From the NCBI GenBank assembly GCA_030390025.1, contig CM059431.1, positions 139,130,001 to 139,194,000 of the forward strand: a stretch of DNA of 64,000 bases, written 5' to 3'. Both the position numbers and the translations under genes were made by a program. This DNA comes from Squalus acanthias (taxonomy: Eukaryota). The notes beneath the pieces were generated by a model, which saw only the letters and a list, made by a program, of their open reading frames with translations, searched no databases and was not told the origin of the DNA. Positions within the stretch are counted from its first letter, which is position 1, and each line of letters begins with the position of its first letter. This document shows, in pieces, positions 27,465-64,000 of the stretch.

Positions 27465-30400
27465 AATCTTACATTACTGGTGGAGACCCTACTCTAACAT
27501 TACTGCTGGTGTCACCACTCAAACATTACTGGTGGTGACCCTACTCAAACATTACTGGTGGTAACCCTACTCAAACATTACTCGTGGTGACCCTACTCTA
27601 ACATAAATGCTGGTGACAGTATTCAAACATTACTGGTGGTGACTCTACTCTAACATTACTGGTGGTGACACTACTCTAAAATTACTGGTGGTGACCCTAC
27701 TCTAACATTACTGGTGGTTACTCTACTCTAACATTACTGGTGGTGACACTACTCAAACATTACTGGTGGTGACCCTACTCTAACATTAATGCTGTTGACA
27801 CTACTCAAACATTACTGGTGGTGACCTTACTCTAACATTACTGCTGTTGACTCTACTCTAACATTACTGGTGGTGACCCTACTCTAACATTACTGGTGTT
27901 TACTCTACTCTAACATTACTGGTGCTGACACTACTCAAACATTACTGGTGGTGAACTTACTCTAACATTACCGGTGATGACCCTACTCTAACATTAATGG
28001 TGGTGACGCTACTCTAACATTACTGGTGGTGACCCTACTCTAACATTAATGCTGGTGACCCTACTCTAACATTACTGCTGGTGACACGACGCTGCCAATA
28101 ATTGTGTTGATCCTACTGTAACATTCCAGTTGATGACCCTACGCAACATTACTGAAGTTGAGCCTACACTCACAGTATATGTCATGAATCTAGGCTACTA
28201 AAGCTGGTGTGATCGTACTCCTACGTTATTAGTGCTGATCCTGCTGTGACATTACTGGTGGTGAACCTGATCTAACATTACTGGTGGTGAACCAACTTTA
28301 ACATTACTGGTGGTGAATCCACTCTAACATTACTGGTGGTGACCCTGCTCTAACATTACTGGTGGTGACCCTACTCTTACATTACTGGTTGTGAACCTGT
28401 TCTAACATTACTGGTGGTGACCCTACTCTAACATTACTGGTGGTGTCTCAACTCTAACATTACATATGGTGAAGCTGCTCTAACATTACTGGTGGTGAAG
28501 CAAATCTAACATTAATGGTGGTGTATCAACTCTAACATTAATAGTGGTGAACCTACTCTAAAATTACTGGTGGTGAACCTCCTCTAACATTACTGGTGGT
28601 GTCTCAACTATAACATTACTGGTGGTGAACTTGCTCGAACATTACTGGTGGTGTCTCAACTCTAACATTACTGGTGTTGACCCTACTCTAACATTACTGG
28701 TGGCGAGCCTACTCTAAAATTACTGGTGGTGACACTTCTATAACATTACTGGTGATGACCCTACGCTACCATTACTCGTGGTGACCCTACTCTGACATTA
28801 CTGGTGGTGACACTACTCTAACATTACTGGTGGTGACTCTACTCTAACATTACTCGTGGTGACCCTACACTAACATTACTGATGGAGAAACTACTATAAC
28901 ATTACTGGTGGTGTCTGAACTCTAACATTACTAGCGGTGAACCTGCTCTAACATTACTGGTGGTGACCCTACTCTATCATTACTGGTGGTGACACTAATC
29001 AAACATTAATGATGGCGAACCTACTCTAACATTACTGCTGGTGTCTCAACTCTAACATTACTGGCGCTGACCCTACTCTAACATTACTGATGGCGAAACT
29101 ACTCTAACATTACTGGTGGTGACCCTACTCTAACATTACTGGTGGTGACCCTACTCTAACATTACTGGTGGTGACCCTACTCTAACATTACTGGTGGTGA
29201 CCCTACTCTAACATTACTGGTGGTAACACGACGCTGTCAATAATTGTGTTGATCCTACTGTAACATTACAGGTGATGACCCTACGCAACACTACTGAAGT
29301 TGATCCTACACTCACAGTACATGTCATGAATCTAGGCTACTATTGCTGGTAGTGATCATACTCCTACATTATTAGTGGTGATCCTGCTGTAACATTCCTG
29401 GTGGTGAACTGCTCTGACATTACTGGTGGTGTCTCAACTCTAACATTACTGGTGGAGTGTCAACGCTAACATTACTGGTGGTGAATCCACTCTAACATTA
29501 CTGGTGGTGAACCGGCTCTAACATTACTGGTGGTGACCCTACTGTAACATTACTGGTTGTGAACCTGATCTAACATTACTGGTGGTGATTCAACTCTAAC
29601 ATTACAGGTGCTGAACCAACTCCAACATTACTGGTGGTGACTCTACTCTTACATTACTGGTGGTGTCTCAACTCTAACATTACTTATGGTGAACCTGCTC
29701 TAACATTACTGGTGGTGAACCAGATCTAACATTACTGGTGGTGTCTCAACTCTAACTTTACTGGTGGTAAACCTGCTCTAACATTACTGGTGGTGAACCT
29801 GCTCCAACATTACTGGTGTTGTCTCAACTCTAACATTACTGGTGGTGACTCAACTCTAACATTACTGGTGATGACCCTACTCTAACATTACTGGTGGTGA
29901 CACTACTCTAACATTACTCGTGGTGACCCTACTCTAATATTACTGATTTTGATCCTACTCTATCATTACTGGTGGTGACACTACTATAACATTACTGATG
30001 GTGACCCTAAGCTAAAATTACTGGTGATGACCCTACTCTAACATTACTGCTGGTGACATTACTGGTGTGGTCTCCACTCTAACATTACTTGTAGTGCAAC
30101 CTTACTGAAGTTGAGCCTACACTCACAGTACATGTCATGAATCTAGGCTGCTATTGCTGGTAGTGATCGTATTCCTACATTATTAGTGGTGATCCTGCTG
30201 TAACATTACTGGTAGTGACTCTAATCTATCATTACTGGTGGTGACTCCACTCTCACATTACTGGTGGAGTATCAACTCTAACATTACTGGTGAGGTCCCT
30301 ACTCTAACATTACTGGTGGTGAACATGCTCTAACATTACTGGTGGAGTCTCAACTCTAACATTACAGGTGTTGAACCTGCTCTGACATTACTGGTGGTGA

Positions 30401-33400
30401 ACCTGCTCTAACATTATTGGTGGTGACCCTACTCTAACATTACTGTTGGTGAACCAACTCTAACATTACTGGTGGTGAACCTACTCTAACATTACTGGTG
30501 GTGAACCTGCTCTAACATTACTGTTGGTGAACCTGCTTTAATATTACTGGTGGTGAACCTGCTCTAACATTACTGGTGGTGACCATACTCTAACATTACT
30601 GCTAGTGTCTCAAATCTAACATTACTGGGGTTGAACCTGCTCTAACATTACTGGTGGTATATCAACTGTAACATTACTGGTGGTGAACCTACTCTAACAT
30701 TATTTTGGCGAACCTACTCTAACATTACTGGTGGTGTCTTAACTCTAACATTACTGGTGGTGAAACTGCTCTAACATTACTGTTGGTGTCTCATCTCTAA
30801 CATCTCTTACATTACTGTTCGTGACCCTGCTCTAACATTAATGGTGGAGAACCTACTCTAACATTACTGGCGATGACCCTCCTCTATCATTACTGGTGGT
30901 GACGCTATTCTAACATTTCTGGTGGTGACACTCCTCTAACATTACTGTTGGTGACTATAATCTAACATTACTGGTGGTGACACTACTCTAACATTACTGC
31001 TGGTGACCCTACTGTATCATTACTGGTGGTGACCCTACTCTATCATTACTGGTGGTGACCCACTCTAACATTACTGGTGGTTTCCTTACTCTATCATTAC
31101 TGCTGTTGTCCCTACTCTAACATTACTGATGGTGACTATAATCTAACATTACTGGTGGTGACACTAGTCTAACATTACTGGTGGTGACCCTACACTAACA
31201 TTAATGGTGGTGACCCTATTCTAACATTACTGGTGGTGACCCTACTCTATCATTACTGTTGGTCACCCTGCAATAACATTACTGGAGGCGTGCCTAGTTG
31301 AAATTAATGGTGGTGATTCTACTCTAAATTTAATGATGTTGTTCCTACGCTAACATTACTAGTGCTTTTTCAATCTAACATTACTGGTAGTAACTCTAGT
31401 CTATCATTAATGATGGCAATCCTGCACTAACATTATTTGTGGTGACGCTACTCTAACATTACTTTTAGACACCCTACTCTAACATTACTGTAGTGACACT
31501 GCTCTATCATTACTGGTGGAGAACCTAATGTAACCTTGCTGATGGTGTATCACTTTAACATTAGGTTTGCTGACCTTACTCTAACATCAAATTTGTGGTT
31601 TCCCTACTCTATCATTATTGGTGGTGACTCTACTTTTTTAGTAATGATGTTGGCCCTCCTCGAAAATTACTTGTGGTGACGCTACACTTACACGACAGGT
31701 GTTGATCCTACTCTAACATTAATTGTGCTGGCCATACTCGAACATTAATGGTGTTGACCTTACTCTATCATTACTGGCGGTGAACCAACTCTTATATTAC
31801 TGATGGTGACTCTACTCTAACATTAATGCTTGTGACCATATTCGAACATTATTGGTGGTGACTCCACTGTAACATTACTGGTGGTAACAGTACTCTTACG
31901 TTACAGGTGCTGAAACTACACGAACACAACTGATGGTGACACTGCTCTAACATAGCTGATTGTGACCGTACTCTAAAATCAATGCTGGGGAAATTAAACT
32001 AACATTACTGATGGTGACTTACTGTAGCATTGCTGTTGGTGGAACTACACTAACATTACTGATGCTGACCCTATACTAACATTGCTGATGGTGAATCCAC
32101 GCCAACATTATTGGTATTGACCATACCCTAACATAAATGTTGTCGTGTCTCTACTCTAACATTACTGGTGGTGATTAGACTCAAACATTACTGGTGGTGA
32201 ACCTACTCTAACATTACTGGTGGTGACCCTTCCATAACATTACAATGATGACACTGCTCTAACAATACTGGTGGTGACACTACTCTAACATTACTGGTGA
32301 TTAACCTACCCCAACATTACTGGTGGTGACCCTACTCGAACATTACTAGTGGTAACTCTATGATAACTTTAATGGTGGTGATTCTACTCTATCGTTACTG
32401 GTGGTGACCCTACTCCAGCATTACTGACAGTGATCCTACTCCAACATTACTGGTGTTGACCCAACTCTAACATTACTGGTGTTGACGCTACTCTAACATT
32501 ACTGTTGGTGAAACTACTTTAGCATTACTGTTTTTGACCCTGGTCGAACATTACTGGTGGTGACTCTACTCTCACATTACTGGTGGTGACTCTACTCTCA
32601 CATTACTGGTGGTGAACCTACTCTAACATTACTGGTTGTGACACTACTCTGACATTACTGGTGGTGATCCTACTGTAATTTACTGGTGGTGACTCGACTC
32701 TAACATTACTGACTTTGACACGGTGATTACATTACTGCTGGTGACACTACTCTAACATTACTGGAGATGACCCCACTTTTACTTTACTGGTGGTGGCCCT
32801 ACTCTAACATTACAGGTGATAACCCTACGCTAAAATTAATGAAGTTGATCGTATTTTCAGTGTACATGTCAAGAAACTAGTGTAACATTACAAGTGGTGA
32901 ACCTACTCTAAAATTAATATTGATATCCCAACTCTAACCTTACTGGTGTTGATCGTACTATAACGTTACTGTTGGTGACCTTACTCGAAAATTTCTCCTC
33001 TTGAAACTAATTTAACACTACTGATGGTGACCATTCTCCAACATTGCTGGTGGTGACCGTGATTTAAAATTACCTTTGGTTACCCCACTCTGACATAACT
33101 GATTGTGACCCTTCTCTATCATACCTGTTGGCGACCCTACTCTAACATTATTGGTGGTGAATCTACTCCAACATTAATGGTGGTGGCCCACACTAACATT
33201 GCTGGTGCTGACTGCACTCTAACATTACTGGTGGTGACTCAACTCCAACATTTCTTGTGGTGACCCTACTCTAACGTTACTGGTGGTGACCCTACTCTAA
33301 CATTTGTGGTGATGACCCTACTCTAACGTTACTGATGGTGAAACAACTCTATTATTACTGGTGGCGACCCTACTCTAGCAATACTGTTGTTGACCCTACT

Positions 33401-33985
33401 CTAATATTATTGGCGGTGATCCTACTCTAACATTACTGGTAATGACACTACTTTAACGTTACTGGTGGCGAAACTATCTAACATTACTTGTGGTGTCCCT
33501 GGTTTAACATTACTCTTGCTGAACCTACTCTAACACAACTGACTGTGACACAACTCTAACATTCCTAGCTGTGACCCTACTCTAACATTACTGGTTGTGA
33601 CTGTATGATAACTTTACTGATAGTGATCCTACAGTAACATATATGGTAGTGATCCTTCTGTAACATTACTGGTGATGCCGCACTCTAACAAATCTGATGG
33701 CTTACTTTACTCCAACATTACTGCTGGTAACTCTACTCTAACATTACTGATGGTGACACTATTCCAACATTTTTTTTGGTGAATCTACTCTAACATTACT
33801 GGTGTTTACCCTGCTCTAACATAACTGGTGGTGACCCTACTCTATCGTTACTGGTGTTGAAACTACTCTAACAATTCTGTTCGTGAACCTAGTCTAGCAT
33901 AACTGATGGTGACCCTACTCTAACATTACTGATGGTGACCCTATTTTACATTACTGGTGGTGAGCCTATGATTAATTTACTGGTA
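27465..33985. repeat. 26-bp satellite with higher-order structure
   Basis: Unit ctactctaacattactggtggtgacc, about 250 diverged copies. Confidence 0.97.
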
Positions 33986-34465: not shown

Positions 34466-37400
34466 CATAGAGTCATAGTCATAGCGTTATACAGCACAGA
34501 AAGAGGCTCTTCGGCCCATTGTGTCCGCGCCGGCCATGAAGCCCTGTCTATTCTAATCCCATTTTCCAGCACTTGTACCGTAGCCTTGTATGCTATGTCG
34601 TTTCAAGTGCTCATCTAAATGCTTCTTGAATGTTGTGAGGATTCTTGCCTCTACCATCCTTTCAGGCAGTGAGTTCCAGATTCCAACCACCCTCTGGGTG
34701 AAAAAGTTTTTCCGGAAATCCCCTCTAAACCTCCTGCCCCTTACCTTGAAACCATGCCCCCTGGTTATTGTGCCCTCTACTAAGGGGAAAAGTTCCTTAA
34801 TAACTACCCTCTATATGCCCCTCATAATTTTGTACACCTCAATCAGGTCCCCCCTCAGCCAACTCTGCTCTAAGGAGAACATCCCCACCCTGCCCAGTCT
34901 CTCATCATAACTGAAGCGCTCCAGCCCAGGTAACATCCTGGTCAATCTCCTCTGCACCCTCTCCAATGCAATCACATCCTTCCTATCGAGTGGCAACCAG
35001 AACTGCACACATTATTACAGCTGTGGCCTAATCAGCGTTTTGTACAGCTCCATCATAACCTCCCTGCTCTTATATTCTATGCCTCGGCTAATGAAGGCAA
35101 GTATCCCATATGCCTTTTTAACCAACTTATCTAACTGACTTGCTGCCTTCAGGGATCTATGTACATGCACACCAAGGTCCCTCTGATCCTTTGTCCTTCC
35201 TATGTTCCTACCATTCATTCTGTATTCCCTTGCCTTGTTAGTCCGCCGAAAATGCATCACCTCACACTTTTCAGGGTTAAATTCCATTTGCCACTCTTCT
35301 GCCCATCTAATCAACCCGTCTATATCGTCCTGTAGCCTGAGGCTTCCCTCCTCGCTATTTATCACTTCACCAATTTTCGTGTCATCTGCGAACTTACTGA
35401 TCATACCTCCTATATTCATATCTAAATCATTAATGTACACTACAAACAGCAAAGGACCCAGCACCGATCCCTGCGGTACGCCACTGGACACAGGCTTCCA
35501 GTCACAAAAGCAACCTTCGACCATCACCCTCCGCATCCTGCCACTAAGCCAATTTTGGATCCAATTTGCCAAGGTGCCCTGGAACCCATGGGCTCTTTCC
35601 TTCTTGACCAGTCTCCCATGCGGGACTTTGACGAAAGCCTTACTGAAGTCCATGTAGACCATTCAGCTGCACTACCCTCATCCACACACCTAGTCACCTC
35701 CTCGAAAAATTCAATCAAATTGGTCAGACATGATCTCCCCCTGACAACGCCATGCTGACTATCCTTGTTTGATCCTTGCCTCTCCAAGTGGAGACTAATT
35801 CTGTCCCTTAGAATGTTTTCCAATAATTTCCCTAGCACTATTGTTAGGCACACTGGCCTGTAATTCCCTGGTTTATCCCTACTACCCTTCTTGAATAATT
35901 GTACTACGTTAGCTGTGCTCCAGTCCTCTGGCACCTCCCCTGTGGACAGAGAGTTTATGAAAATTTGTGTCAGAGCCCCTGCAATCTCTTCCCTTGCCTC
36001 ACACAGCAGCCTGGGATATATCTCGTCTGGGCCTGGGGATTTATCCACTTTTAAGCCCGCTAAAACCGCTAGTATCTCCTCCCTCTCAATACTAATTTGT
36101 TCACGTATATCACAATCCCCCTGCCTGATTTCAATGCCTAAATCGTCCTTCTCCATAGTGAACACAGATGCAAAATATTCATTTAGAACCTCACCTACAT
36201 CTTCCGACTCTACACACAGATTGCCTCTTTGGTCCCTAATGGGCCCTACTCTTACCCTGGTTATCCTCTTGCCCTTAATATACTTGTAAAACACCTTGGG
36301 ATTTTCCTTTCTTTTGCCTGCCAGTGTTTTTTTATGCTCCCTCTTCGCTCTCCTAATTTCATTTTAAGTACCCCCCTGCACTTTCTATACTCCTCTAGGG
36401 CTTCCACTGTTTTTAGTCCTTTGTATCAGGCAAAAGCCTCCGTTTTTTCCTAATCCATTCTTGTATATCCCTTGACATCCAGGGTTCACTTGGCTTGTTG
36501 TTCCCAACCGTGACCTTTACGGGAGCATGTTGGCGTTGTACTCACTCTATTTCCTTTCTGAAAGACTCCCACTGCTCTGATGTGGATTTCCTGCAAGTAG
36601 CTGATCCCAGTCCACTTTGGCCAGATCCTGCCTTATGATATTACAATCGGCCTTCCCCCAATTTAGAACCTTTATTTCCATCCATCTTTGTCCTTTTCCA
36701 TGAAAACCTTAAATCTCGCCGAATTACGCTCACTCTCACCAAAATGCTCTCCTACTGTCACTTCGACCACTTGCCCGGCTGCATTCCCTAGAATTAGGTC
36801 CAGTACCGCCCCCTCTCTTGTAGGACATTCTATATGCTGGCTCAAAAAGCTCTCTTGGATTCACTTTAACAATTCCGCACCCTCTAAGCCTTTCACACCC
36901 TGACTATCCCACTTAATATTGGGGAAGTTGAAATCCCCTAATAATATTACCCTATTATTTCGACACTTCTCTGAGAATTGCCTACATATCTGTTCCTCTA
37001 TCTCCCCTGACTATTTGGGGGCCTATAGTACACTCCCAGCAAAGTGCTTGCCTCCTTTTTGTTTTTAAGTTCTACCCATATGGCCTCATTAGAGGAACCT
37101 GCTAAGATATCATCCCTCCTTACAGCAGTAATTGACTCCTTGATTAATATTGCGACACGTCCTCCTCTTTTACGCCCCCCTTTGTCTCGCCTGAAGATTC
37201 TATACCCCGGAATATTGAGCTAGCTGTCCTGCCCCTCCCTCAACCATGTCTCTGTGATAGCAACAATATCATACTCCCATGTGTTCATCAACAGCTTCAC
37301 TTCGTCTGCCTTACTCGCAAGACTCCTTGCATTAAAATAAATGCCATCCAGCCTTGTCATACTCCTTTTGCCGTTACATATTTGCTCTGCCTTCCATGCT

Positions 37401-39050
37401 GACTTGTTTATTCCTCTATGTTTGGCTGTGCATCACCCTCTACTATAGCTCCAATCCGTTTCCAATCCCTCTGCCAAGTTAGTTTAAACCACCCCCCTTA
37501 AACAGTACTTGCAAACCTCCCCGCAAGGATGTTGTTCCCATTCCGGTTCGGGTGCAACCCGTCCGACTTGTACAGGTCCCACCTTCCCCAGAAGCAGACC
37601 CAGTGATCCAGGAAACTAAAGCCCTCCCTCCTGCACCAACTCTTTAGCCCCGCACTCATCTGCTCTATCGTCCTATTCCTATACTCACTCGCACGTGTCA
37701 CCGGGAGTAATCCAGAGATTACAACATTTGAGGTATTGCTTTTTAATCTGCCACCTAGCTCCCTAAATACTTGTAGCAGGACCTCATCCCTCTTTCTACC
37801 CATGTCGTTGGTACCAATGTGAACCACAACCTCTGACGGTTCGCCCTCCCCCTTCAGAATGCCCTGCAGCCGTTCAGTGACATCCTGGACCCTGGCACCA
37901 GGGAGGCAACATACCATCCTGGAGTCACGTCTGCGGCCACATAAACGTCAACTGTTCCCCTTACGATAGAATCCCCTGTCACTATTGCTCTCCCACTCTT
38001 TTTCCTCCCCTCTTGTGCAGCTGAGCCACTCGTAGTGCCACAGACTTGGCTCCTGCTGCATTCCCCTGAGAAACCATCTCCCCCCGCAGTATCCAAAAAG
38101 GAAAATCTGTTTGAGAGGAAGACGTACGCAGAGGACTCCTGCACTACCTTCCCAGTTATTTTACTCTCTCTGGCGGTCACCCATTCCCTGTCGGCCTGTG
38201 CACTCTTTACCTGCAATGTGAACCATCTTGTTAAACGTGCTATCCATGAAGATCTCAGCTTCGCGGATGCTCCACAGTGACTCCAGCCCCAGCTCCAGCT
38301 CTGAAACACGGATTTCGAGTAGCTGCAGCTGGAGACACTTCCTGCACATGTGTTCGCCCTGGACACCTAAAGTTTCGCTGAATTCCAACATAGCATTGGA
38401 GGAGCACTCCACGCTGCCGAGCTGCCCTGCCATGTCCTACCCTTAATTTACACCATTTACTGCCTTTAAATTAAAGAATATTAAATACACTAGGAACCTT
38501 ACTTCCCTTGAAACACTACTTACTCTAAACTAGAGACCTTACTTTTACTTTAACGACTGGAATGTAAAAATACTGTAGAAATACTCACCGCAGGTTCTCT
38601 GTCCCCTCTTGTGCAGCTTTTTAGCGCCTGCTCTCCTGGAAGCTGACAAAGATAGAGAAAGAAAGGAACACCTCCCTCCCCTACTCCCTCACTCACCAAA
38701 CTAGCAGCTTACCACTCTGTTCCGCTCTGCACTCCGTGACAAACTGCACTCTAGCTTCCCTTATTTATACTGCTGAAATTTAAGTAAGTGAGCTCTCTGG
38801 CAGTTACTGAACCAGATTAGACCAGTTAATTAATTAATTGCTCTCATCTGCTCTCCAGCGCAGAGCTTGCTTAGCCCTGCCCAAGCCTGGAAGAAACTTA
38901 AAACTTGAAACAGTACATTTCAATTTATGTTAAATGCTAATTGCAAGCATACAAGACAAGATTGTATATAAAAAAAGAGATTAACCTTTAAGATTCACTC
39001 CCTCACTCACCAAACTCGCAGCTTAACACTTTGTTCCGATCTGCACCATG
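34466..39050 (-). mobile_element. Near full-length CR1 LINE (5' UTR, ORF1 Zn-finger plus SGNH esterase, ORF2 endonuclease plus RT); disrupted
   Basis: HMCRKCLQLQLLE, TGDSIVRG, VHIGTND, DGLHPN; KSPGPD, GNYRPV, GVPQGSVLGP, KFADDTK; catagagtcatag tail. Confidence 0.95.
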
Positions 39051-39105: not shown

Positions 39106-40160
39106 ATTTAACACTACTGATGGTGACCATTCTCCAACATTACTGGTGGTGATCGTGAATTAACATTACTGTTGGTGACCCTATTCTAACTGAACTTATT
39201 GTGACCCTACTCTGTCATTGCTGTTGGTGACCCTACTTCAACATTATTGGTGGTGAAACTACTACAACATTAATGGTGTTAACCCCACTCTGTTATTATT
39301 GGTGTTGAGCCAACTCTAACATTACTGATGGTGTTCCTACTCTAACATTACTGGTGTTCGCTCTACTCTAACATTACTTTTGGTGATCCTACTCTAATAT
39401 TATTGGTGGTGACCCTATTCTAATATTACCAGTGGTGACCCTACTCTAACATTACTGGTGGTGACCCTACTCTAACGTTACTGATGGTGAAACTACTCTA
39501 TCATTACTGGTGGTGACCCTACTCTAACATTACTGTTGTTGACACCACTCTAATATTATTGGCGGTGATCCTACTCTAACATTATTGGTAATGACTCCAA
39601 TCTAACGTTACTAGTTGCGAAACTATCTAACAATACTTGTGGTGTCCCTGGTTTAACATTACTCTTACTGACCCTACTCTACCACAACTGACTGTGACCC
39701 TACTCTACCATTCCAAGTGGTGACCCTACTTTAACATTACTGGTGATGACTCTATGATAACGTTACTGATGGTGATCCTACAGTAACATAAATGGTAGTG
39801 ATCCTTCTGTAAAATTACTGGTGATGCCCCACTCTAACATTACTGGTGGCTTACTTTACTCTAACATTACTGCTGGTAACTCTACTCTAACATTACTGAA
39901 TGTGTCACTATTCGAACATTATTGGTGGTGACTCTACTCTAACCTTACTGTTGTTTACCCTGCTCTAACATAACTGGTGGTGACCCTACTCTATCGTTAC
40001 TGGTGTTGAAACTACTCTAACATTACTGTTGGTGAACCTGGTCGAACATTACTGGCCGTGACCCTACTCTATCATTACTGGTGGTGATTCTACTCTGACA
40101 TTAATGCCGGTGACCCTACACTGACATTACTGGTGGTGACTCTGCTCTGACTTTAATGGC
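39106..40160. repeat. 26-bp satellite continuation
   Basis: Same unit; the order of variants parallels 33010-33985. Confidence 0.95.
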
Positions 40161-40239
40161 TGTAGGCTTCGCAAAATCCCCCAGAAACTCGAACAGAGCC
40201 CTAAAGGGAGTGATTTTTGGACTTTTCATACAAACTTGG
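40161..40239 (+). repeat. Truncated 5' LTR (first 79 bp)
   Basis: 78/79 identical to 48715-48793; starts with TG. Confidence 0.92.
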
Positions 40240-43200
40240 CATTTGTGCAGGAAAACCTCGCAGCATTTGCCACTCACAAGCACGACTGTGGGAGGGTAAC
40301 CGGGGTCGAGGTTAGTGTACTTGGGGACCCCATGAACCGCCCACAAAAGCAGTATAACTTCCCCAGGGAAGCTTAGACAGACTTGGAAACGGCTTTGACT
40401 TCTGTAGTCAAAAAGGGGATATTGAGACCTATAGTTACCCACGTGAACTCCCCAATGTGGCCGGTTAGAAAACCAGAGAAATCCTGAAGGGCCACAGTAG
40501 ACTATCGAGTACTCAACCGAAACATCCCCGCCTGTGCCCCCACGGTTGCAGCCGTAGCCGACCTCATTGGAAGTATCCCGGCATCTGCGACCACCTTTAC
40601 AGTGCTGGATATTTCCAACGGGTTCTGGTCCATCCCTCTAAGGAGAGAGGATCAGTACAAGTTCGCCTTTGCATTTAAAGGCCAACAGTCCACATGGAAC
40701 TGTCTGCCCCAGGGCTACCACAACAGCACAAGCATGTTTCCCCAATGTATGGTGAATTGCTTGAAGGGATTCAGCAGGCCCCATCAGCTGGTCCAGTATG
40801 TGGACGGCCTACTCCTTTTTACCGATGAGGGAGAGGAACATGGTCCCCTTCTGGCAGAACTGCTGGAACTGCTCAGGCAAGAGGGCTTTACGGTAAACCC
40901 CAAGAAGGCACAGATTGGCCAGCGGGAAGTCAAATTCCTGGGCCTGGCTGTGCGAGCAGGGGAGAGGGCCATTGACAAAGCTAGAAGGGAAGCAGATCAG
41001 GAGTTACCAGCCCCCAACACAGTTACAGGGGTAAGGTCTTTTCTAGGGCTAACTGGGTACTGCAGAGATTTCATTGAGGATGACGCAGCCACAGCAGCCC
41101 CTCTGCTCCGTCTCCAACACAAGGGAGTGGAGCGGGGTTGGGATGAGGGTTGCGAGGCTGCCTTTGTGAAACTCAAGAGAGATCTGCAAACCGCACCGCT
41201 CTAGGGGCCATTGATGGAGGGGTAGAGTTTTTCCTACAGGTAGCAGCCAGTGGGGACAGTCTGAGTATAGTGCTGCTCCAAGAGAGGCATGGCAAGCTGA
41301 GACCAATGGTTTACTTCTCCAGAATACTCACTGATGTGGAGAGGAGCTACTTCAACTGTGAGAGGCACCTCCTAGCCACTCACTGGGCTGTGAAAAGATC
41401 ATTGATCTTCACAGGCACCTCTCCCATCACACTCCTCACTCACCACACGCCCACCCAGATGCTCTTGGATGGGAGAATTAAAGATGGGACAGTGAGCAGT
41501 GCCCGCATTGCACGCTGGACCCTGCTTCTCTCACAAATGGATCTGAGGGCCAAAGCTCGCAGCAAACATGATTTACTCAGGGACAGCCCACCGGAGTTCC
41601 GTTGAAGGGGTATGGGAAGTCAACAAAGGTTTGCGAGCTGGGATAAACCCCACAGGCCGCGAAATCTACGTGGACGGTTCAAGCACAGTATCAGCTGGCA
41701 AACGACCCACAGGGTTTGGGATTTATGACCCAGAGGCAGGCATTGCTCTGGCAATCAAGCTCCCCAGCACCATGAGTGCCCAGCAGGCTGAACTGTCTGC
41801 GGTGGTGTATGTAGTCACACACCCCAAGGAATTCCCTACCCCATACACGATTTGCTCGGACAGCATGTTCACATGCAATTCGTGTACAGAGTACCTGGCC
41901 ATCTGGTCCCGTCGTGGATAAACCTCCGCCGATGGGAGACCCCTGGCCATCAAGCCTCTGTTGGAGAAAATCCTGAGGGCAGTAGGGGAGGAAGGTAGGG
42001 TATACATGCAAAAGGTGAAGGCCCATTCCAAGGTAAAGCCCCGCGCAGAGGGCAATCACCAAACCGACATGCTGGCCAAAGAGGACGCCAGTACAGGCAC
42101 GTTGTGGGATCCATATGGATCAAACCCGGTAGCAGCAATAAGAGGCAGAGGAGGGACCCAAGGGAGTGCAGGGGTAGCATTGACCCCGGACCTAAAGACG
42201 GTCCAGGCACGGGATCCCATCCTAAAAACTGTCCTGGAAACGCTGGCTACAGGGGAGAAGATAGAGGGCCCTTACGGCGCAGCAGCCATAACCCGCAAAG
42301 AAGGGATGCTGTTCAGTGGGGAACAATGGGTAGTGCCGCAGCAGCACCGAAGGGAATTCCTCCAACTGACCCATGAGGGTCCAGGAGCGGGGCTTCCCGG
42401 GACTGAGACCACCTGGCAGCAGGTGGAACAGGCAGGATGGTGGCCAGGACTGAGGGAGGATGTCCGCGAGTTCTGTGCAGGCTGTCTGGTGTGTGCTGCT
42501 AACAACCCTGAACCCCAGAAAAGGAAGGTATCTATGGGACACATCAGGAGGGTAGAGGGACCATGGCAGTCGATCCAGGTCGACTACATCGGGCACCTAC
42601 CCACGCTCAGGGTGGCTACAAATACTGCCTAGTCCTGGTGGATGTGTTCTCAAAGTGGGTGGAAGCTTTTCCATGTCGAACAGCTACCGCTTTGGGTACA
42701 GCCAGGATCCTGGTCAGGGAAGTGTTCTCACGATGGGGGCTCCCACAGTATGTGGAGTCAGACCAGGGGAGTCACTTTACTGGGCAGGTCATGCAAGAGA
42801 CCCTCAGGGTACTCGGCATAGAAGGGAAATGGCACTTCGCCCACAACCCACAGTCATCAGTGATTGTGGAGCGTTTAAACCGTACCATCAAAGAAAGGCT
42901 GCGAAAGGAGATGGGAGACTCACCCAAAAAGTGGGTAGAAGCCTTACTGTTGGTCCTAATGGGGATCCGGGCCAGCCAGTCAAAAAGCACGGGGTATTCC
43001 CCACACCAGCTCATGACTGGCAGGATTATGCGGACCCCCACCCATGTGCTAGCCCCGGTGCTCACGGAAGGGCAGCTCAGGCAAGTGAACCGGGACAGAT
43101 TCGTCAGGAATCTGTTGGACCACCTTAAACAGGTCCACTGGCAGGCTGCGAGTAACATGGGAAAACAGCATCGGGGTAACCGATTGCTGCTGGAACCCCG

Positions 43201-43490
43201 CAAGCACCACGAGTGGGAGGTTGGAGATCAGGTCATGGTGAGAAATTTTGCTCGGGTAGGGAGTTTCGAACCATTGTACATGGGGCCCTACAACATTGTA
43301 GACAAGGCAAGCCCCATGGTTTATGCCATAAAGATGCCCCGCCGTACAAAGTGGTTTCTCATCAAATAATGCAAACTGTTTAAACCTAAAAGGGAACAGC
43401 CGCCAAAGCTGGATGGCCCCAAGTTAGAAATCCTCAGCCAGCCGCAGCTGTGGCAGACGCACAAGCTGCAGCGGGAGGGACAGTGTGTTA
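40240..43490 (+). pseudogene. pol: pol: RT, tether-like RNase H, catalytic-type RNase H, integrase; multiple stops and frameshifts
   Basis: WPVRKP, DYRVLN, LDISNGFWSIPL, LPQGY, QYVDG (YVDD site), VRSFLGLTGY; ERHLLA...ARW; IYVDGS...SAQQAEL...SDS...KVKAHS..GN; CAGCLVC, VDVFSKWVEAFP, ESDQGSHFTG, VERLNRTIK, GPY. Confidence 0.93.
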
Positions 43491-45494
43491 ACATAAGAAC
43501 ATAAGAAATAGGAGCAGGAGTAGGCCAATCGGCCCCTCGAGCCTGCTCCGCCATTCAATAAGATCATGGCTGATCTGAACCTAACCGCCAATCTACTATC
43601 TATCACAGAACCATATCCTGCATCTAACAGAATTGCACACACGAAATAGGAGCAGAATCAGGCTACACGGTCCCTGGGCCCGCTCCACTACCCACAGGGC
43701 CATGACCGGATCCGAACCTAGACTCATGTCCAAATTCCTGCCCGCTCCCCGTAACCCTTAATGCCCTTTACTTCTAGGAAACTGTCTATTTCTGTTTTAA
43801 ATTTATTTAATGATGTAGCTTCTACAGCTTTTTGTGGCAGCATATTCCATGGACCTACCACCCACTGAGTGAAGTAGTTCCTCCTCATCTCAGTTTTGAA
43901 AGAGCAGCCCCTTATTCTAAGACTATGTCCCCTAGTTCTAGTCTCACCCGTCATCGGGAACATCCTCCCCGCATCCACCCGATCCAACCCCTTCACAATC
44001 TTATATGTTTCAATAAGATCGCCTCTCATTCTTCTGAACTCCAATGAGTAGAGTCCCAATCTACCCAACCTCTCCTCATATGACCACCCCCTCATCCCCG
44101 GGATTAATCGAGTGAACCTTTTTTGCACTGCCTCGAGAGCAAGGATGTCTTTCCTTAAGTAAGGACACCAAAACTGTATGCAGTATTCCAGGTGCGGTCT
44201 CACCAATACCTTGTACAACTGATGCAATACCTCCCTATTTTTATATTCTATCCCCCTAGCAATGAAAGCCAACATTCCATTTGCCTTCTTAATCACTTGC
44301 TGCACCTGCATACTAACCTTTTGAGTTTCGTGCACCAGGACCCCCAGATCCCTTTGCACTTCAGTACTCTCCAGTTTCTTGCCATTAAGATAATAAGTTG
44401 CTCTAGGATTTTCCTGCCAAAGTGCATCACCTCACACTTTCCAGTGTTGTATTCCATCTGCCAAATCTCTGCCCACTTACTTAGCCTGTCTATGTCCCCT
44501 TGCAGGTTTTTTATGTCCTCCTCACTCACTACTTTCCCTCCCATCTTTGTATCATCTGCAAATTTTGATATGTTACACTTGGTCCCTTCCTCCAAATCGT
44601 TAATATAGATTGTAAAGAGTTGGGGACCCAGCACTGATCCCTGTGGAACACCACTAGTTACTGATTGCCAGTCTGAGAATGAACCATTTATCCCAACTCT
44701 TTGCTTTCTGTTAGATAGCCAATCCTCTATCCATGCCAGAATATTACCCCCAATCCCGTGATTTTTTACCTTAAGCAATAATCTTTTGTGTGGCACCTTG
44801 TCAAATGCCTTTTGGAAGTCTAAATACACTACGTCCACTGGTTCCCCTTTATCCACTCTATATGTTACTTCCTCAAAGAACTCCAGAAAATTTGTCAAAC
44901 ATGACTTCCCCTTCGTAAAACCATGCTGACTTTGTCCTATTAAATTATGATTATCCAAATGTCCTGTTACTGTTTCCTTAATAATGGACTCCAAAATTTT
45001 ACCTACCACAGATGTTAGGCTAACAGGGCTATAGTTACCAGCCTTCTGTCTACTGCCCTTTTTAAATAAGGGTGTTACATTAGCAGTTTTCCAGTCTGCC
45101 GGGACCTTAGCGGAATCCAGGGAGTTTTGAAAAATTATTACCAATGCATCTACAATCCCTACCGCCACTTCCTTCAAGACTCTAGGATGTAAGCCATCAG
45201 GTCCAGGTGATTTATCCGCCTTGAGTCCCATTATTTTACCGAGTACCACTTCCTTAGTGATTTTGATCGTGTTTAGCTCCTCTCCCCCTATAGCCCCCTG
45301 TTTGTCCAGTGTTGGGATATTCTTAGTGTCCTCTACTCTAAAGACTGATACAAAATATTCATTCAGTGTTTTTGCCATCTCCATATTTCCCACCATTAAT
45401 TTCCCGGTCTCATCCTCTAAGGGACCAACATTTACTTTAGCCACCCTTTTTCTTTTTATATAACTATAAAAACTCTTACTATCTGTTTTTATAT
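43491..45494 (-). mobile_element. Young 5'-truncated CR1 inserted in the provirus
   Basis: ORF2 is open over ~1.75 kb apart from one frameshift; (aacataag)n tail; tgtt at both junctions. Confidence 0.93.
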
Positions 45495-46039
45495 GTTGTC
45501 TCACAGGAGAGGTCACTCCACCGATTATGTATTTAGAGGGTCCCACCCAAAGAGGGTTACAACCCGAAAAAGAGCGCCCAAGAGCAGGGAGCGTTCTAAA
45601 GTTGGGGATTACCAGCCTACAGCCTCCAACAGTGAGGGATTCACAGGAGAGGTAGTACTGGAAGAAGAAGAGAGAGTAGGGTCCCCCGCCTGCAGCCTCA
45701 GGCTGGGAGGAGCCCACAGATATGAACGGTGGCGCTGCAGCCACACAAAAGGGGGTAGTGTGCTGCAGCACAGGACGCAGCTGGGATGTTAAGATACCCC
45801 CAGCGGTTTTGAGGAAGGCCTTCTGGGTCCGGCGGTACAGGCCGCACTACACCCAGGTGTACAAGCCATCCAGAGGCCACATAAGGCAGAGACTAAACAG
45901 GATTTAACCTGGCCGTCGGTTTTAAGTAATTGCAGTTTTGGTGGTTATGGTTATCACTAGTTTAGTTGTTTGTAGAGTTTTTTAAGTTTAAGGGCTTGAT
46001 TAATTATCCAGCCAGAGAACCTTTCTGGGACATGGATAT

Positions 46040-46062
46040 ATGTTTTGTGTGCGCCCCTACAG
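46040..46062 (+). promoter_or_regulatory. Putative env splice acceptor
   Basis: ttttgtgtgcgcccctacAG ends 13 nt upstream of the signal-peptide ATG at 46076. Confidence 0.5.
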
Positions 46063-46075
46063 AAAGGACTTCGGG

Positions 46076-48427
46076 ATGACAAGGTTTCTGCTCCTGCTCG
46101 CCCTGGTAGGGGTGAGCATCGGTGACCGAGGTGACGTGGTGGACTCCCACATCTATGCGTGCTCAGGAGTGAGATCACCAGTCGTCACCACAGGTGTTGG
46201 CGAGCGGGGAGTGGAGGAGCTCGCCATCTACTTCCACGAGGGAAGGTGGAAGGGTGGCTGGGGTCCAACTCTACTAAATACTCCAACCAGCCCGGGTTCA
46301 CGTACGGGGAGGCCTCCCTCCCATGCCCCAGAATACAGGTCGTTGCCACAAGGGTCAGTGTCACGGAGGGGAAGCGTGTGTGCCTTACCTGTAAGGGACG
46401 AATTCCCTTGAATAGGTGGTGGTGGCTCAGGAAGCTGAGCAGGGACGCAGGGGTCCATACAGCCGACTGGGAAAGATTAGGGAACGACACCCACCAGACA
46501 ATCACAGGGACCCAAGGAGGAGTTAGTGTTTGTTGGGATAAGTGGTGGGTGTCGGAACAGGGAGTCTATGTTTGTATGTGGGGATCAGAGGAAGTCTGCC
46601 CCACAGGGTTATCCATCATTATCTCCAGCCAATGGAAAGATGCCGGGGAGGGGATAGGGTGGGATTCTAGCCTGCATGGGTGCGTGGTCCCACACATTCC
46701 GCTCCCAGTTAATGCCACTGAACTCGTGGCACACACTCGAAAGCCCCTACCCACGACCCAGGTACCGAAAACCCTGGAAGAAAAGTGCCCTACCACCACC
46801 AAGGGACCAGGGAATGGGTTAGTCCTAGCACCAAACGAAAATGTACTATACCAGGGGGTACACTATGCAGTAGCTTCAGTAATATTAAACCTTACCGAGG
46901 TATACTTACCTGAGTGGTGTCCTAAGGAGACGGAGCAACTGTACCAGGCCCTGCTAAAGGAAATGTTTCGGAAATTTTACGAATTTGATTTTGCCAATAT
47001 AGACAAAGTAGAGCTATACAGAATACACCCTGATAACCCTATGGGCATGGGTAGACAAAGAAGGGGAGCCTGGAATGATGTCTTCACTGCCTACAGTACA
47101 GGGTCCTCTGTAATAAATAGCCTGGATGACATGGAATTACAGACACAGATAAATGGTTTAAAAACCCAGTTAAGAAAGATCCTGAAGAATGGGAACACAG
47201 TGGTAGGCTCAGAGCTACATGAGGACCAAGCTGTGACGGTTCATTTAAAGCAAATTATTGCAGAATTGGAAAGGCATGCCAAAAATTTAAATGCACTCAT
47301 ACGGGAGGATAGGAATGCATCGGATCAGGCTGCACAGAATGAGGTGTGCGTGCTGTACGGGGCATGGTTGCTGGGCGAGGGCCCTAGCAACCTGGAGGAT
47401 TTAAAGCAACTTTAGTCCCCTCCTGGATCAGCAACAAGCACCTTGCAGCCCTCCACCCGTTTAGTAATTCGCTGACCCATGCCAATTTCGACTAGCCTCT
47501 GAAGCCTACCCTGTCCCAATAGATTGTGGGCGTTCAAATCACACTACCATGGGGATAGTAGTGAGAATGACGGTCATGAGTGGGACAGCCCGACCCGTAC
47601 CGGTATACAGGGTGGAGAACATTGGAGTCATTCAAGGGGGTGCATACATCCGTTTTACAGCGGTCCCACCTTAGGTCATAAAGTGGGAGCACGCCATGAC
47701 AGGTACTGACCTCTCCGGGTGCCGGAGCCGGGGTTCACACATAATACTGTGTCCCCAGCACTTGAACGCCTATTCCAAACCACAGTGCGGGTTTAAAGCT
47801 GCTGGCGCACAACCTATCAATTGTACCATGGAGGTGATGGCACACGGCCATGTTTCCCCACAGGTAGCATATATAGGTGGTGGGACATATTGTGTCACCA
47901 CAGGTGCGTCCCACTACCAGCATGGACACTTCTGGTGTCCGGTAAGTGACAGCAGTTTCTGCTTTAAACCCGAGGCAGAAGTTCAAGTGGCCCAGGAACG
48001 GATTGTCCCCATACCTGAACCCTCCACTGTTCACCTCACTGTAACAGAAAACATCACCAACCAGCAAAAGTATGTGACTTACTTTGGATATAAAATTCCC
48101 CCTCTACCCGAACATCTTACCATCCTACTTAAAGCTGTAGAGATTTCACAAAAACATTTCCACACCCTGGAACAGAAAACAGTTGAAATAGGGGCAGAGA
48201 TTTTGGATATAGTAGTTCCACCCTGGTGGGATATTTTCGAGAATATAGAGGTGCCGTCCTGGATCAGGATGGCTTCCCATCTTTTGGTGGTCTGCCAGCT
48301 CGGGATAGTTCTCTACCTGCTGTGTACAAAGTGCAGGGGAAGGGACGGGGAGCTCCGCTCCAGACACGAAGGGACTTGGGAAGTGCATCAAAATAAAGGC
48401 TATGGCCAGGGATGGAAGGAACATTGA
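46076..48427 (+). pseudogene. env: env-like class I fusion glycoprotein with N-terminal Ig-like domain; disrupted
   Basis: Signal peptide MTRFLLLLALVGVSIG; frameshift at ~46262; Ig-like segment; T/P stalk; RQRR furin site (47053-47064); heptad LQTQINGLKTQLRKIL; Cys-rich DLSGC..ILCP..C..NCTMEV..YCV; TM HLLVVCQLGIVLYLLC. Confidence 0.85.
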
Positions 48428-48703
48428 ATTTCGTCTTTTAATTAAAAAAAAATTGTATATGTGTTGTGTCATTTTTACGAGGTGTATGATGTGTTTTTTT
48501 TCCAAAGTGTGCAGGGGTGTCGGACCCTCTCCGTGCTTGGATGTGAAATAAAGATTGATTCTTACCTGTATGTTCCTGAAACACCACTTTCAAAAGGGGA
48601 ATTAATGTTTGGGATTTTAGTTTAGGTAATACAGCGGAAGGTTGGTTTTCGGGGATCGGAAATTTTGCTCACCTGTTAATGATACTAAGTCAGTGTTAGT
48701 ATC

Positions 48704-48714
48704 AAAGTGGGGGA
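48704..48714 (+). other. Polypurine tract
   Basis: aaagtggggga lies immediately before the TG of the 3' LTR. Confidence 0.8.
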
Positions 48715-49806
48715 TGTGGGCTTCGCAAAATCCCCCAGAAACTCGAACAGAGCCCTAAAGGGAGTGATTTTTGGACTTTTCATACAAACTTGGGATGATG
48801 GGACCTCAGTGAAGTGATTTGATGTAAAAACCTAAGACCACAAGAAGAAAACCTTGAGGAAACTCACTTTTCGAATCTTACAGGGGCAAGACGCCTTCAC
48901 AGACACACAGGCTGCAGAGGGGCGTGGCCAGGCAGTGCAGTAAACTGTCGACAAAACCAAAAAAAAACCTCACAAACACATTCAAATATGGATCCCCAGG
49001 GGCAAACAAGATGCTGGTAATCTAAAAACGATTCAATGACAATATAATTTCGATCACACAGTTTCATAGCCATTATCCCATCCAAAAAACAATCAATCAG
49101 GTATGCAGAGAACCGATTTAAAAGCCCGCCAAACAGAAGGACAATAGAATGAAGATTTGGCGCGTAGATAAGGCGATGTTTAAATCGGAAAGCGATTAAC
49201 ACTTAGCAAAAACCATCGGAGCTGGTCAGCCCGCCAAAAACTAGACAAAGGACATTTGCATTCAAAAAGGAATTCGTTTTAGTAAGGGGTTTTGAGCGCG
49301 AAAAAATAGACAGTATAATTTGAATGCCTGTGCCATAATCTCGCTCTCTTTGGACTGACTGGCGACGCGAACACAGCTCTCTCCCTGCTCCAGCAAAACT
49401 TACCACAAGCCACGAGGAAGAAAACCAGCACGCAAGAAGAAACCATAAGGGTCTTCCGGAGTCCTTTTAAACAAAAAGACTCTAATATCCAGTCAAGGAC
49501 TCGTTGGTGAGCATTATCCCTGATCTCCTGAAACCAAAAACCTAGCCAGATAGTGGGATATTTGGGAGGGATAAGGTTTTGTTTGATATATTGTAATTTC
49601 CCTCGCTTGTACCGTGCGTTTCCCGAATCTGTGTTTAAGTAGTAAGTGTGTTTTCAAGTTTGTAACCTTTTTCTTTTAAGAAAGTAAATTTCTTTCATCA
49701 GAACCTGTTTACTGCAATTTTGTTCACAACCCCTAAATAAGCCCAAAGTCTAGGAACCGGAGGGGTGTTGGTCGATTCGAACCGCTCACTTAAGATACCC
49801 CTTACA
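48715..49806 (+). repeat. 3' LTR (~1.09 kb; right end inferred)
   Basis: Start fixed by the PPT and the 5' LTR match. End placed at ccttaCA, an imperfect inverted match to tgtagg. Confidence 0.65.
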
Positions 49807-52185: not shown

Positions 52186-52224
52186 ATTTACAATAATTTT
52201 TCTTTATCCTACACACCAATCCAT

Positions 52225-53900
52225 TTAGGTGAACGCAGTAACTGTGTAATTAGAGATAGAGGACAGGGTAATTTAGGGGAACACAGTAACAGTGTAATTA
52301 GAGACAGAGGGCAGGGTAATTTAGGGGAACACAGTAACTGTGCAATTAGAGATAGAAGAGAGGGTAATTTAGGGGAACACAGTAACTGTGTAATTAGAGA
52401 TAGAGGACAGGGTCATTTAGGGGAACACAGTAACTGAGTAATTAGAGATAGAGGACAGGGTCATTTAGGTGAACACAGTAACTGTTTCATTAGAGATAGA
52501 GGGCAGGGTAATTTAGGTAAACACAGTAACTGTGTAATTAGCGATAGCGGACAGGGTAATTTAGGGGAACACAGTAACTGTGTAATTAGAGATAGAGTAC
52601 AGGGTAATTTAGGGGAACACATGAACAGCTTAATTAGAGATAATGGACAGTGTAAATTAGGGGAACACAGTAACTGTTTAATTAGTAATAGTGGACAGGG
52701 TAATTTAGGGGAACACAGTAACAGTTTAATTAGAGATAATGGACAGGGTAAATTAGGGGAACACAATAACTGTTTAATTATAGATAGAGGACAGGGTAAT
52801 TTAGGGGAACAAAGTAACAGTTTAATTAGAGATAGAGGACAGGGTAATTTAGGGGAACACAGTAACTGTAATTAGAGATAGAGGACAGGGTAATTTAGGG
52901 GAACACAGTAACTGTGTAATTAGAGATAGAGGACAGGGTAATTTAGGGGAACACAGTAACTCTGTAATTAGAGATAGAGGACACGGTAATTTAGGGGATC
53001 ACAGTAACTGTAATTAGAGATAGAGGACAGGGTAATTTAGATGAACACAGTAACTCTGTAATTAGAGATAGAGGACAGGGTAATTTAGGGGAACACAGTA
53101 ACTGTGTAATTAGAGATCGAGGACAGGGTAATTTAGGGGAACACAGTAACTGTGTAATTAGAGATAGAGGACAGGGTAATTTAGGGGAACACAGTAACTG
53201 TGTAATTAGAGAAAGAGAAATGGGTAATTTAGGGGAACACAGTAACAGTTAAATTAGAGATAAGGACAGGGTAAATTAGGGGAACACAGTAACTGTGTAA
53301 TTAGCGATAGAGGACAGGGTAGTTTAGGTGAACACAGTAACTGTGTAATTAGAGATAGAGGACAGGATAATTCATGCGAACACAGTAACTGTGTAATTAG
53401 AGATATAGGACAGGGTAATTTAGGGGAACACAGTAACTTTGTAATTAGTGATAGAGGACAGGGTAATTTAGGGGAACACAGTAACTGTGTAATTAGAGAT
53501 AGAGGACAGGGTCATTTAGGGGAACACAGTAACTCTGTAATTAGAGATAGAGGACAGGGAAATTTAGGTGAACACAGTAACTGTTTAAATGTAAATAGTG
53601 GACAGGGTAATTTAGGGGTACACAGTAACTGTGTAATTAGAGATAGAGGACACGGTAATTTAGGGGAATGCAGTAACTCTTTAATTAGTAATAGAGGACA
53701 GGGGAAGTAAGGGGAACATGTTAACTTTTTAATTCGAAATAGAGGACAGGAGAATTATGGGGAATGCTGTAACTGTTTAATTATAAATTGGGACCAGGGG
53801 GAACATAAACCATTTATTTAGAAGTAGGTTCATGTAAAGATATTAACCGTTTAATAACAAATAGAGGGCACGGGAATGCCAGGAGAACACAACAACTGTT
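52225..53900. repeat. 48-bp tandem satellite
   Basis: Unit aattagagatagaggacagggtaatttaggggaacacagtaactgtgt, about 30 homogeneous copies that decay at the right end. Confidence 0.97.
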
Positions 53901-62920: not shown

Positions 62921-63356
62921 TGTTTTGAAGATTTGTGCGAATTCAGCGCAGCTTTACAATTCCGACTGGAGTGTTTCTGAGATCCGTAAATGCTCCTTCT
63001 TTATAGAACAATCGGTGCCCCGCTGAGATAATCAGATTGCACAATAATTGGCGTTAGTTCCAGTAACTTAACAAACAAGGGGCGATTTTCAACCTCAGTG
63101 CGCCCGGGCCTCCACTGGGGAAATTGAGCAGTTCAGTCCATGAAACTCCGTCCATTAAAATCAATGAACGGAAAGTAATCGCCGAGGCAATGGACTCTGC
63201 GCATGTCCAGTAAACCCTGAAGGATAAAGCAAACGTTCACCCGGACACTGCAGTGATTTCTTGGAGCCTCATCTTAATTTGGCGAAATCGTCACTCATCC
63301 ATTGCATAATTAAAATGTGTTTTGTACTTTGGTGATGAATGATGTTGAATCGGCTC

Positions 63357-64000
63357 TTACTTTACTGGTGGTAACTCTACTCTAACATTACTGGTGGTGA
63401 CCCTACTCTAACATTACTGGTGCTGACTCTACTCCAGCATTACTGGTGGTGACTCTACTCTAACATTACTGGTGCTGACTCTACTCTAACTTTACTGGTG
63501 CTGACTCTACTCTAACATTACTGGTGGTGACCCTACTCTAACATTACTGGTGCTGACTCTACTCCAGCATTACTGGTGGTGACTCTACTCTAACATTACT
63601 GGTGCTGACTCTACTCTAACTTTACTGGTGCTGACTCTACTCTAACATTACTGGTGGTGACTCTACTCTAACATTACTGGTCATGTCTCTACTCCAGCAT
63701 TACTGGTGGTGACTCTACTCTAACATTACTGGTGGTGACCCTATTCTAACATTACTGGTCGTGACTCTACTCTAACATTACTGGTGGTGACTCTACTCTA
63801 ATATTACTGGAGGTGACTCTACTCTAACATTACTGGTGGTGACCCTACTCTAACATCACTGGTGCTGACTCTACTCCAGCATTACTGGTGGTGACTCTAC
63901 TCTAACATTACTGGTGGTGACTCTACTCTAACATTACTGGTCATGTCTCTACTCCAGCATTACTGGTGGTGACTCTACTCTAACATTACTGGTGGTGACT
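63357..64000. repeat. 26-bp satellite, second array (runs off the window)
   Basis: ctactctaacattactggtggtgact units. Confidence 0.97.

Follow-up and report, generated by a model that had tools for sequence, protein, structure and literature searches.

Lokiretroviruses are defined through reverse transcriptase (RT) phylogeny as the sister group of the canonical retroviruses (PMC7947760), and were found in none of the six chondrichthyan genomes in the supplement of that study (Wang & Han 2020, PMC7947760), which set out four open scenarios for the origin of the retroviral envelope protein (Env). Orthoretrovirus Env was assigned to fusogen class Ia and only foamy virus Env to class Ib (Fernandez et al. 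2024, PMC11468914). Among endogenous retroviruses (ERVs) of cartilaginous fish, CmiERV lineage I from elephant shark was placed with the snakehead retrovirus (SnRV) in class III (Han 2015, PMC4422223). The locus described here is a provirus in a stretch of 64,000 nucleotides from contig CM059431.1 (the window), for which a preliminary description had proposed a lokiretrovirus. It is best explained, and we hold this to be probable, as a dead member of a shark ERV family with many copies, from an early-branching canonical lineage that carries an Env resembling the fusion (F) proteins of paramyxoviruses (F-like) with an N-terminal immunoglobulin (Ig)-like head.

Pol lineage and envelope architecture

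The window RT was recovered within the clade of ortho- plus spumaretroviruses (support 100/94 for RT, 99/96 for RT-RNase H and 99/91 under a mixture model), sharing a branch with ERVs of frogs and coelacanth (97/96 for RT, 94/93 for RT-RNase H). The first tree kept 68 of 261 rows; 15 of 52 rows were dropped from the RT-RNase H tree and 15 from the mixture-model tree. Foamy-, gamma- and delta-type records were labelled by length and motif, and SnRV was recovered from IMG/VR (L046, with the length of 10,688 nt given in PMC12193657 and four identical RT motifs). The sequence nested neither in the spumaretroviruses nor in single-RNase-H Gypsy elements, the two RT placements named in the preliminary description as refuting it; with two RNase H domains and an RT outside Gypsy in the RT tree, the element is not Ty3/Gypsy. 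No RT relatives were found among viral contigs.

Loki-type rows lay outside the branch of window plus canonical retroviruses in six trees (100/99, 100/98, 100/98, 100/94, 99/96 and 99/91), and a forced grouping of the window with them was rejected by the approximately unbiased (AU) test (p 0.013, 0.007 and 0.002). These rows were database proteins P0084, P0286, P0074 and P0119, recognised by Loki motifs, the published Loki consensus sequences being absent from the trees. By our own reading, the 24 published Loki RTs (PMC7947760, Dataset S3) share four signatures; all four occur in P0084, P0074 and P0119 (one from eel, near Loki-Aro by eye) and none in the window RT, which has an LPQG-type motif instead, or in its relatives. 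Loki RNase H groups with the foamy one. The RNase H tree set the window apart from Loki and foamy rows with support 49/83, and the integrase tree, in which CGIN1 was not among the rows, gave no clear separation from Loki-type rows. When this genome was searched with Loki-type Pol, the best identities were 35-39% and all six loci examined were LPQG-type; no Loki element turned up in this search, which sets a floor. The nearest Pol proteins of the window come from frogs, coelacanth and turtles, all of them Loki hosts; a Loki reading drawn from the nearest RTs (bullfrog, Xenopus, coelacanth) was dropped after the published Loki RTs had been read.

The proposed lokiretrovirus membership was abandoned on the RT signatures, the six trees and the AU tests. 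Its supporting argument, an F-like Env as the Loki signature, did not hold either, since foamy Env is F-like as well (PMC11468914). The tether plus second RNase H had been recognised correctly (Pfam E 9e-18 and E 4e-10); this pair is common to all Retroviridae and Odin and is therefore non-diagnostic for Loki.

The lineage is more plausibly, and in our estimate likely, that of the 'SnRV-related' class III ERVs, among them CmiERV lineage I and the frog and coelacanth ERVs. The window RT resembles the SnRV row of Dataset S3, and the Pol motifs of CmiERV-I agree with those of the window by eye (ATHKHDCGR, PACAP, LDISNGFWSIPL), the best match among published elements, by which the Pol lineage would belong to a known type with earlier records from cartilaginous fish. 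CmiERV-I shares with the shark family a chondrichthyan host, near-identical RT motifs (compared by eye, no alignment), a TGA-ending gag with a zinc knuckle and a simple layout of long terminal repeat (LTR), gag, pol, env and LTR (by eye). It differs in its gamma-type Env, with an immunosuppressive domain (ISD) and CX6CC, and in its primer binding site (PBS), whereas the shark family has an F-like Env and a tRNA-Arg PBS. The primer of SnRV is likewise Arg, and its PBS differs from that of the shark family at 5 of 18 positions. SnRV has a coiled-coil Gag with one CCHC knuckle and an in-frame stop between gag and pol (PMC2717909) and shares the RT motifs, whereas its RT is 39-42% identical and not an exclusive sister, its gag-pol junction is TAG and that of the shark family TGA, and the latter has a short Env tail with no 3' accessory open reading frame (ORF) seen.

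Several results weigh against this placement. An exclusive clade with SnRV was rejected (AU p 0.012 for a narrow and 0.017 for a broad group; LG+G4, 37 rows, groups named after earlier trees had been seen), so that 'SnRV-related' denotes a grade here and no demonstrated clade. The mixture model leaves the base of the canonical retroviruses unresolved, RT identity is 39% both to SnRV and to the Loki-type eel RT, a sister position to the foamy viruses is not rejected (AU p 0.106), and comparison of the Gag with SnRV Gag gave no significant match.

The translated env begins with a signal-like stretch, an Ig-like domain, a Thr/Pro-rich linker, an F2-like part and an RQRR site (~47056-47067), followed by heptad helices, a Cys-rich beta region and a transmembrane stretch (~48269-48325). 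Homologues in skate and sawshark are 59-72% identical. Starting from GPxxGxVL, the motif order (cleavage site, heptads, Cys-rich region) follows that of published Loki Envs by eye. P0007, a homologue from sawshark (65% to the window), was assigned to the ESM Atlas clusters Fusion_gly F0 and Baculo_F at 0.92, sharing 195-201 features, which is the range of true families; its structure matched F-type clusters with template-modelling (TM) scores of 0.55-0.58 on a model of predicted TM score 0.43, the feature counts and the structure matches both coming from a single source. The gamma-type motifs CX6CC and ISD were found neither in the window env (three frames) nor in P0007 or SnRV Env. The Env of the shark family is thus very likely F-like (class Ib). 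Set against this are the want of a Pfam Fusion_gly match at threshold for any Env piece, PDB sequence searches with the Env pieces that returned nothing at E <= 0.001, and our own 426-aa Env model, which was poor (predicted local distance difference test, pLDDT, 36.5) and made the fold search on it meaningless. An Env search among longer proteins gave 0 matches.

Compared with Loki Envs, ~200 extra residues precede the F-like core. Within this extension the Ig spacing (C, W, GxYxC) is conserved among homologues, Ig_3 was matched at E 0.0012 (below the curated cut-off) and CRTAM at E 0.045, the Atlas gave 0.90-0.93, and for the model of the head (pLDDT 56.6) the top PDB rows were all Ig domains, none of them at E <= 0.001. 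An Ig domain at the Env N-terminus is a likely interpretation. It has to be balanced against the fact that these are four weak lines, none past its own threshold, that the model is poor, and that a wide fold search gave a best Z of 5.3 with mixed hits and phage proteins on top; a comparison with viral structures gave nothing at E <= 0.001. A canonical Ig domain at the Env N-terminus has been described for Env-Dbi (Hotzel 2024, 10.1101/2024.03.17.585361), whose SIRP-like V-type Ig (IgV) receptor-binding domain sits on a gamma-type Env and has a traceable host-gene origin, whereas the donor gene of the shark domain was not identified. Foamy Env and other class Ib fusogens share the F-type scaffold with an added binding module (Fernandez et al. 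2024, PMC11468914); the foamy binding domain lies between the subunits, whereas the shark module is Ig-like and sits at the N-terminus, as in the spike of coronaviruses, and the shark Pol lies outside the spumaviruses.

The chondrichthyan host named in the preliminary description was borne out: the named Env homologues (six of eight) all come from skate, sawshark and whale shark, among named RT relatives a protein from a sevengill shark (66%) ranks first, and the genome has matches of 64-87% to seven exons of a Niban-1-like protein from sawshark, a comparison made with no bony-fish control. The host is very probably a shark. One sawshark record, P0004, is a gene model that fuses Env with the host Niban-1-like protein and is probably a prediction artefact.

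Competing explanations

One explanation differs from the preferred reading in history alone, with the same working mode as ancestral retention: an SnRV-related gag-pol recombinant in which a gamma-type env was replaced by a Loki F-like env and a host Ig domain was added later. We regard it as possible but doubtful. The gamma-type Env of CmiERV-I on the same Pol lineage (ISD and CX6CC, by eye) speaks for such an exchange, whereas the Env of SnRV, which lies on a separate Pol branch, likewise has neither motif and is colinear with the shark Env over 285 columns. Class III ERVs with exchanged env genes are documented, and so is an Env that took up an IgV domain from its host (the SIRP-like receptor-binding domain; Hotzel 2024); on the other side, no Loki was found in this genome within the floor set by the search, and, foamy Env being F-like, retention from a common ancestor explains shark, SnRV and foamy Env with no Loki donor.

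The colinearity with SnRV Env (L046:6131-9535, a long protein) was non-significant (hhalign E 0.11), and the two Ig heads aligned over 20 columns only; a V-set match at the SnRV Env N-terminus was faint (E 0.28, non-significant). When a hidden Markov model of the alignment was run against 200 shuffles, SnRV Env ranked outside the top 8. Pairwise comparison gave z 5.2 for one region chosen post hoc (reached by 1 of 300 shuffles) and z 2.1-2.7 for five other regions, the control giving 1.9. The SnRV Env link may therefore be taken as a lead at the level of sequence. A tentative joint reading goes further: F-like (class Ib) Env would be the ancestral vertebrate retrovirus envelope, kept in Loki, foamy viruses, the shark lineage and the culturable SnRV, the gamma-type orthoretrovirus Env would be a later replacement, and shark and SnRV Env would both be Ig-headed, the head serving for attachment.

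An unlikely alternative is a foamy-like (spuma-related) ERV, for which an F-like Env would be expected. Foamy-like ERVs are reported in cartilaginous fish and a foamy sister relation survived the AU test, whereas the foamy clade (100/100) excluded the window RT in three trees, from whose rows fish foamy-like ERVs were absent; the fish foamy-like RT rows in Dataset S3 are unlike the window RT by eye. The CCHC knuckle and the in-frame gag-pol stop of the shark family are both lacking in spumaviruses (PMC2717909, PMC8278194).

It is about equally improbable that the Env is not F-like, or its head not Ig. The resemblance would then stem from generic coiled coils and beta strands. The threshold searches were empty and the models of low confidence, and Atlas scores of at least 0.9 also arise for 4-10% of shuffled proteins. 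The shared-feature counts nevertheless lie in the true-family range, the structure search leads to F-type clusters independently (one source), the motif order agrees with that of Loki Envs, and the C...W...GxYxC spacing is conserved in the homologues.

That the element is a genuine lokiretrovirus, which would be the first from cartilaginous fish, is very improbable: the tether plus RNase H, an F-like Env with an RxxR site, an N-terminal Gag coiled coil and pol-less derivatives are all shared with lokiretroviruses including the Loki-derived zebrafish BHIKHARI, the relatives of the window were automatically named 'NYNRIN-like' and Loki integrase is near CGIN1/NYNRIN, whereas the RT clade is separate, the Loki fusion peptide is more hydrophobic, and Loki Envs start at the F core without the 200-residue Ig-plus-linker extension (seven full-length N-termini read).

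The window copy and its family

All parts named in the preliminary description (RT, tether, RNase H, integrase with GPY, env, polypurine tract and LTR) were found in the order given there on the + strand, and the bounds 40161-49806 proved exact, the 3' LTR end being fixed through other copies.

Table 1. Coordinates in the window of the parts of the provirus, the LINE insert and the left flank.
Feature	Position	Strand	Basis
5' LTR stub, 82 bp	40161..40242	+	96.5% to 48712-48796 of 3' LTR
Reverse transcriptase, two in-frame stops near start	40238..41204	+	RVT_1, translation
Tether, a degenerate RNase H; frameshift at either end	41198..41557	+	PF17917 E 9e-18, PF17919 E 2e-13
Catalytic-type RNase H, halves split by one stop	41550..42095	+	PF00075 E 4e-10 and 4e-4
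Integrase: H2C2 zinc domain, catalytic core, GPY; one frameshift, terminal stop	42330..43369	+	Pfam
C-terminal Pol tail (~200 codons), first part	43370..43489	+	95% to other copies
Inserted 5'-truncated LINE fragment, not viral	43490..45494	-	RVT_1 E 1.5e-28
Remaining Pol tail, ~116 nt deleted	45495..45908	+	Comparison with other copies
env, ~780 codons, three frameshifts and one stop	46075..48427	+	Translations, homologues
Probable Ig-superfamily (V/I-like) domain, Env N-terminus	46306..46620	+	Four weak lines
Polypurine tract	48704..48714	+	Same purine run 5' of 3' LTR in 13/13 measured copies
3' LTR, 1,092 bp, TG...CA	48715..49806	+	Ends set by other copies
26-bp satellite array, left flank	39109..40159	.	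40 repeat copies

The 5' LTR stub is joined to pol, with a 5-bp overlap at the joint, through a deletion of ~3.4 kb that took the remaining 5' LTR, the PBS, gag and the protease; in other copies an LTR of 1.1-1.26 kb is followed by ~2.3 kb of gag-pro up to the position matching 40238. The RVT_1 profile (Pfam) matched 40488-41204 (E 1.1e-26), the RT being 78% identical to Logan protein P0178, and the RT_RNaseH profile spanned 41147-41605 (E 9e-18). The RNase_H match began at ~41660, with the motifs IYVDGS, AELSAV, SDS, KAHS and GN in the translations. Integrase was matched by PF17921 (E 6e-15), rve (E 6e-15) and weakly by SH3/p58_C. Beyond GPY the pol frame of other copies extends to a stop matching ~45908 of the window; no Pfam match was found for this tail, which even the pol-less copies of the family retain. 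The long interspersed nuclear element (LINE) fragment within it is missing from this site in 19 of 20 other copies, and contigs from all four sequencing runs examined join across the site. The same LINE family struck the Pol tail of another copy independently, the insert being 95% identical. With gag and protease deleted, a LINE inserted, four stops and three frameshifts in pol and the further lesions in env, the window copy is dead.

Elsewhere in the window, 26-bp satellite arrays occupy 27467-33968, 39109-40159 and 63354-64000 (250, 40 and 25 copies), a 48-bp repeat array lies at 52223-53783, and the - strand at 35524-37947 has LINE remnants that include an RT and an ORF1 of esterase (GDSL-like) type. 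No tRNA genes were found within the 64 kb.

Genome matches comprised at least 40 env and at least 40 pol sequences at 92-99%, the best 40 candidates being scored for each. Exact-motif counts over the genome gave 2,377 LTR starts, 260 joints of polypurine tract and LTR, and 166 LTR-PBS joints (one spacing variant), with 0 in the reversed controls; the family comprises roughly 260 proviruses and ~2,400 LTRs, many of them solo. The LTR U3 differs by 11-22% between subfamilies, with conserved LTR ends. Twenty env copies were inspected with 10 kb upstream, one of them a 99% duplicate of the window copy. In the remaining 19, pol is present in nine and absent in ten. This search for fuller relatives, suggested in the preliminary description, recovered gag, protease and PBS. 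Gag has ~600 codons, a heptad-rich N-terminal half and one CCHC knuckle (zf-CCHC E 0.003), and the protease follows downstream (E 2e-4). An in-frame TGA stands between gag and pol in 18 of 19 copies (next codon CTG in 15, CTA in three). The primer site, present in 17 of 19, agrees with the 3' terminus of tRNA-Arg(TCG) genes in the host; in copies with the site the first ATG of the gag frame, a putative start, overlaps it. This tRNA gave 431 matches genome-wide, and large tandem tRNA-Arg(TCG) arrays with a period of ~1,623 bp, with tRNA-Ser nearby, were seen at C26:38.99-42.2 Mb.

An exact target site duplication (TSD) of 4 bp was found in 10 of 13 copies and one with a single mismatch in the other three. 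LTR pairs were dated in 13 of the 19 copies (the other six had no measurable pair): the median distance was 0.017 (range 0.008-0.077, n=13), corresponding to ~39 million years at the shark rate assumed in Han 2015 and to 4 million if a mammalian rate is taken. The ten pol-less copies have gag and env and share one mosaic deletion that joins part of the protease to the Pol tail, in frame in seven of nine measured copies; the fusion derives partly from a diverged related family (patches of ~70% nucleotide identity).

The contig (C7:138.74-139.33 Mb) carries three segmental paralogues, the window copy among them. The third has neither the deletion nor the LINE, yet it too has no TSD and its LTRs are 0.06 apart, so that two proviruses probably recombined to form this locus. 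The locus was then probably duplicated, acquired the deletion and the LINE, and was duplicated again.

Part of env was detected in sequencing runs of at least seven organism codes (20 of 24 rows, 8 studies), and four of four runs examined, from four different codes, covered 29-30 of 30 bins. No RNA runs containing env were among the matches listed. The ratio of nonsynonymous to synonymous polymorphism (pN/pS) in env was 0.52 (seven non-independent copies, transition bias uncorrected) and was not taken to demonstrate reinfection. The genome holds at least three other families from this Pol lineage (RT 59%, 72% and 85% to the window family); 47 of 52 scored matches were stop-free with most frames at 1,000-1,500 codons, which suggests a much younger burst.

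An intact member would be expected to transcribe LTR-driven RNA and to prime minus-strand synthesis with tRNA-Arg(TCG), for which the primer match is observed. Its Gag has the coiled coil and single knuckle that are observed, and Pol would be produced by read-through of the TGA seen at the junction, as in SnRV and in gamma- and epsilonretroviruses (PMC2717909). Integration would generate the 4-bp duplication that is observed. Env would, following established retrovirology, be made from a spliced RNA; from its sequence features, furin would cut it at RQRR, and the resulting F2- and F1-like halves would fuse membranes as paramyxovirus F does. The weakest step is the Ig head, which likely serves for attachment; the analogy is with class Ib fusogens to which binding modules have been added (PMC11468914) and with the captured IgV domain of another Env (Hotzel 2024). 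The pol-less subfamily would have spread in trans with enzymes of the pol-bearing copies, as its shared deletion and the separate TSDs of its copies imply.

Implications for retroviral envelopes

What is new is probably the F-like, probably Ig-headed Env on this Pol lineage, the lineage itself being known. The preliminary description had offered a new lineage as one outcome; this falls for Pol, known in outline, and stands for the combination of Pol and Env, which was not found described. No report of an F-like or Ig-headed Env in SnRV or an SnRV-related ERV, and none of Loki in sharks, was found in a search with most subscription literature and the bioRxiv supplements of Chen 2021 and Hotzel 2024 outside it; these two supplements may contain this lineage.

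The combination of dual RNase H and F-like Env is insufficient to identify a lokiretrovirus, and F-type envelopes reach further into the retroviruses than described. A canonical, non-foamy Pol lineage with an F-like Env in some members and a gamma-type Env in others marks where one fusion machine was exchanged for the other. Should F-like Env prove ancestral, SnRV, an orthoretrovirus with an infectious clone, would offer a living model of how the ancestral viruses entered cells; if its Env were confirmed as F-like, the question could be resolved on a virus that fish cell lines already propagate.

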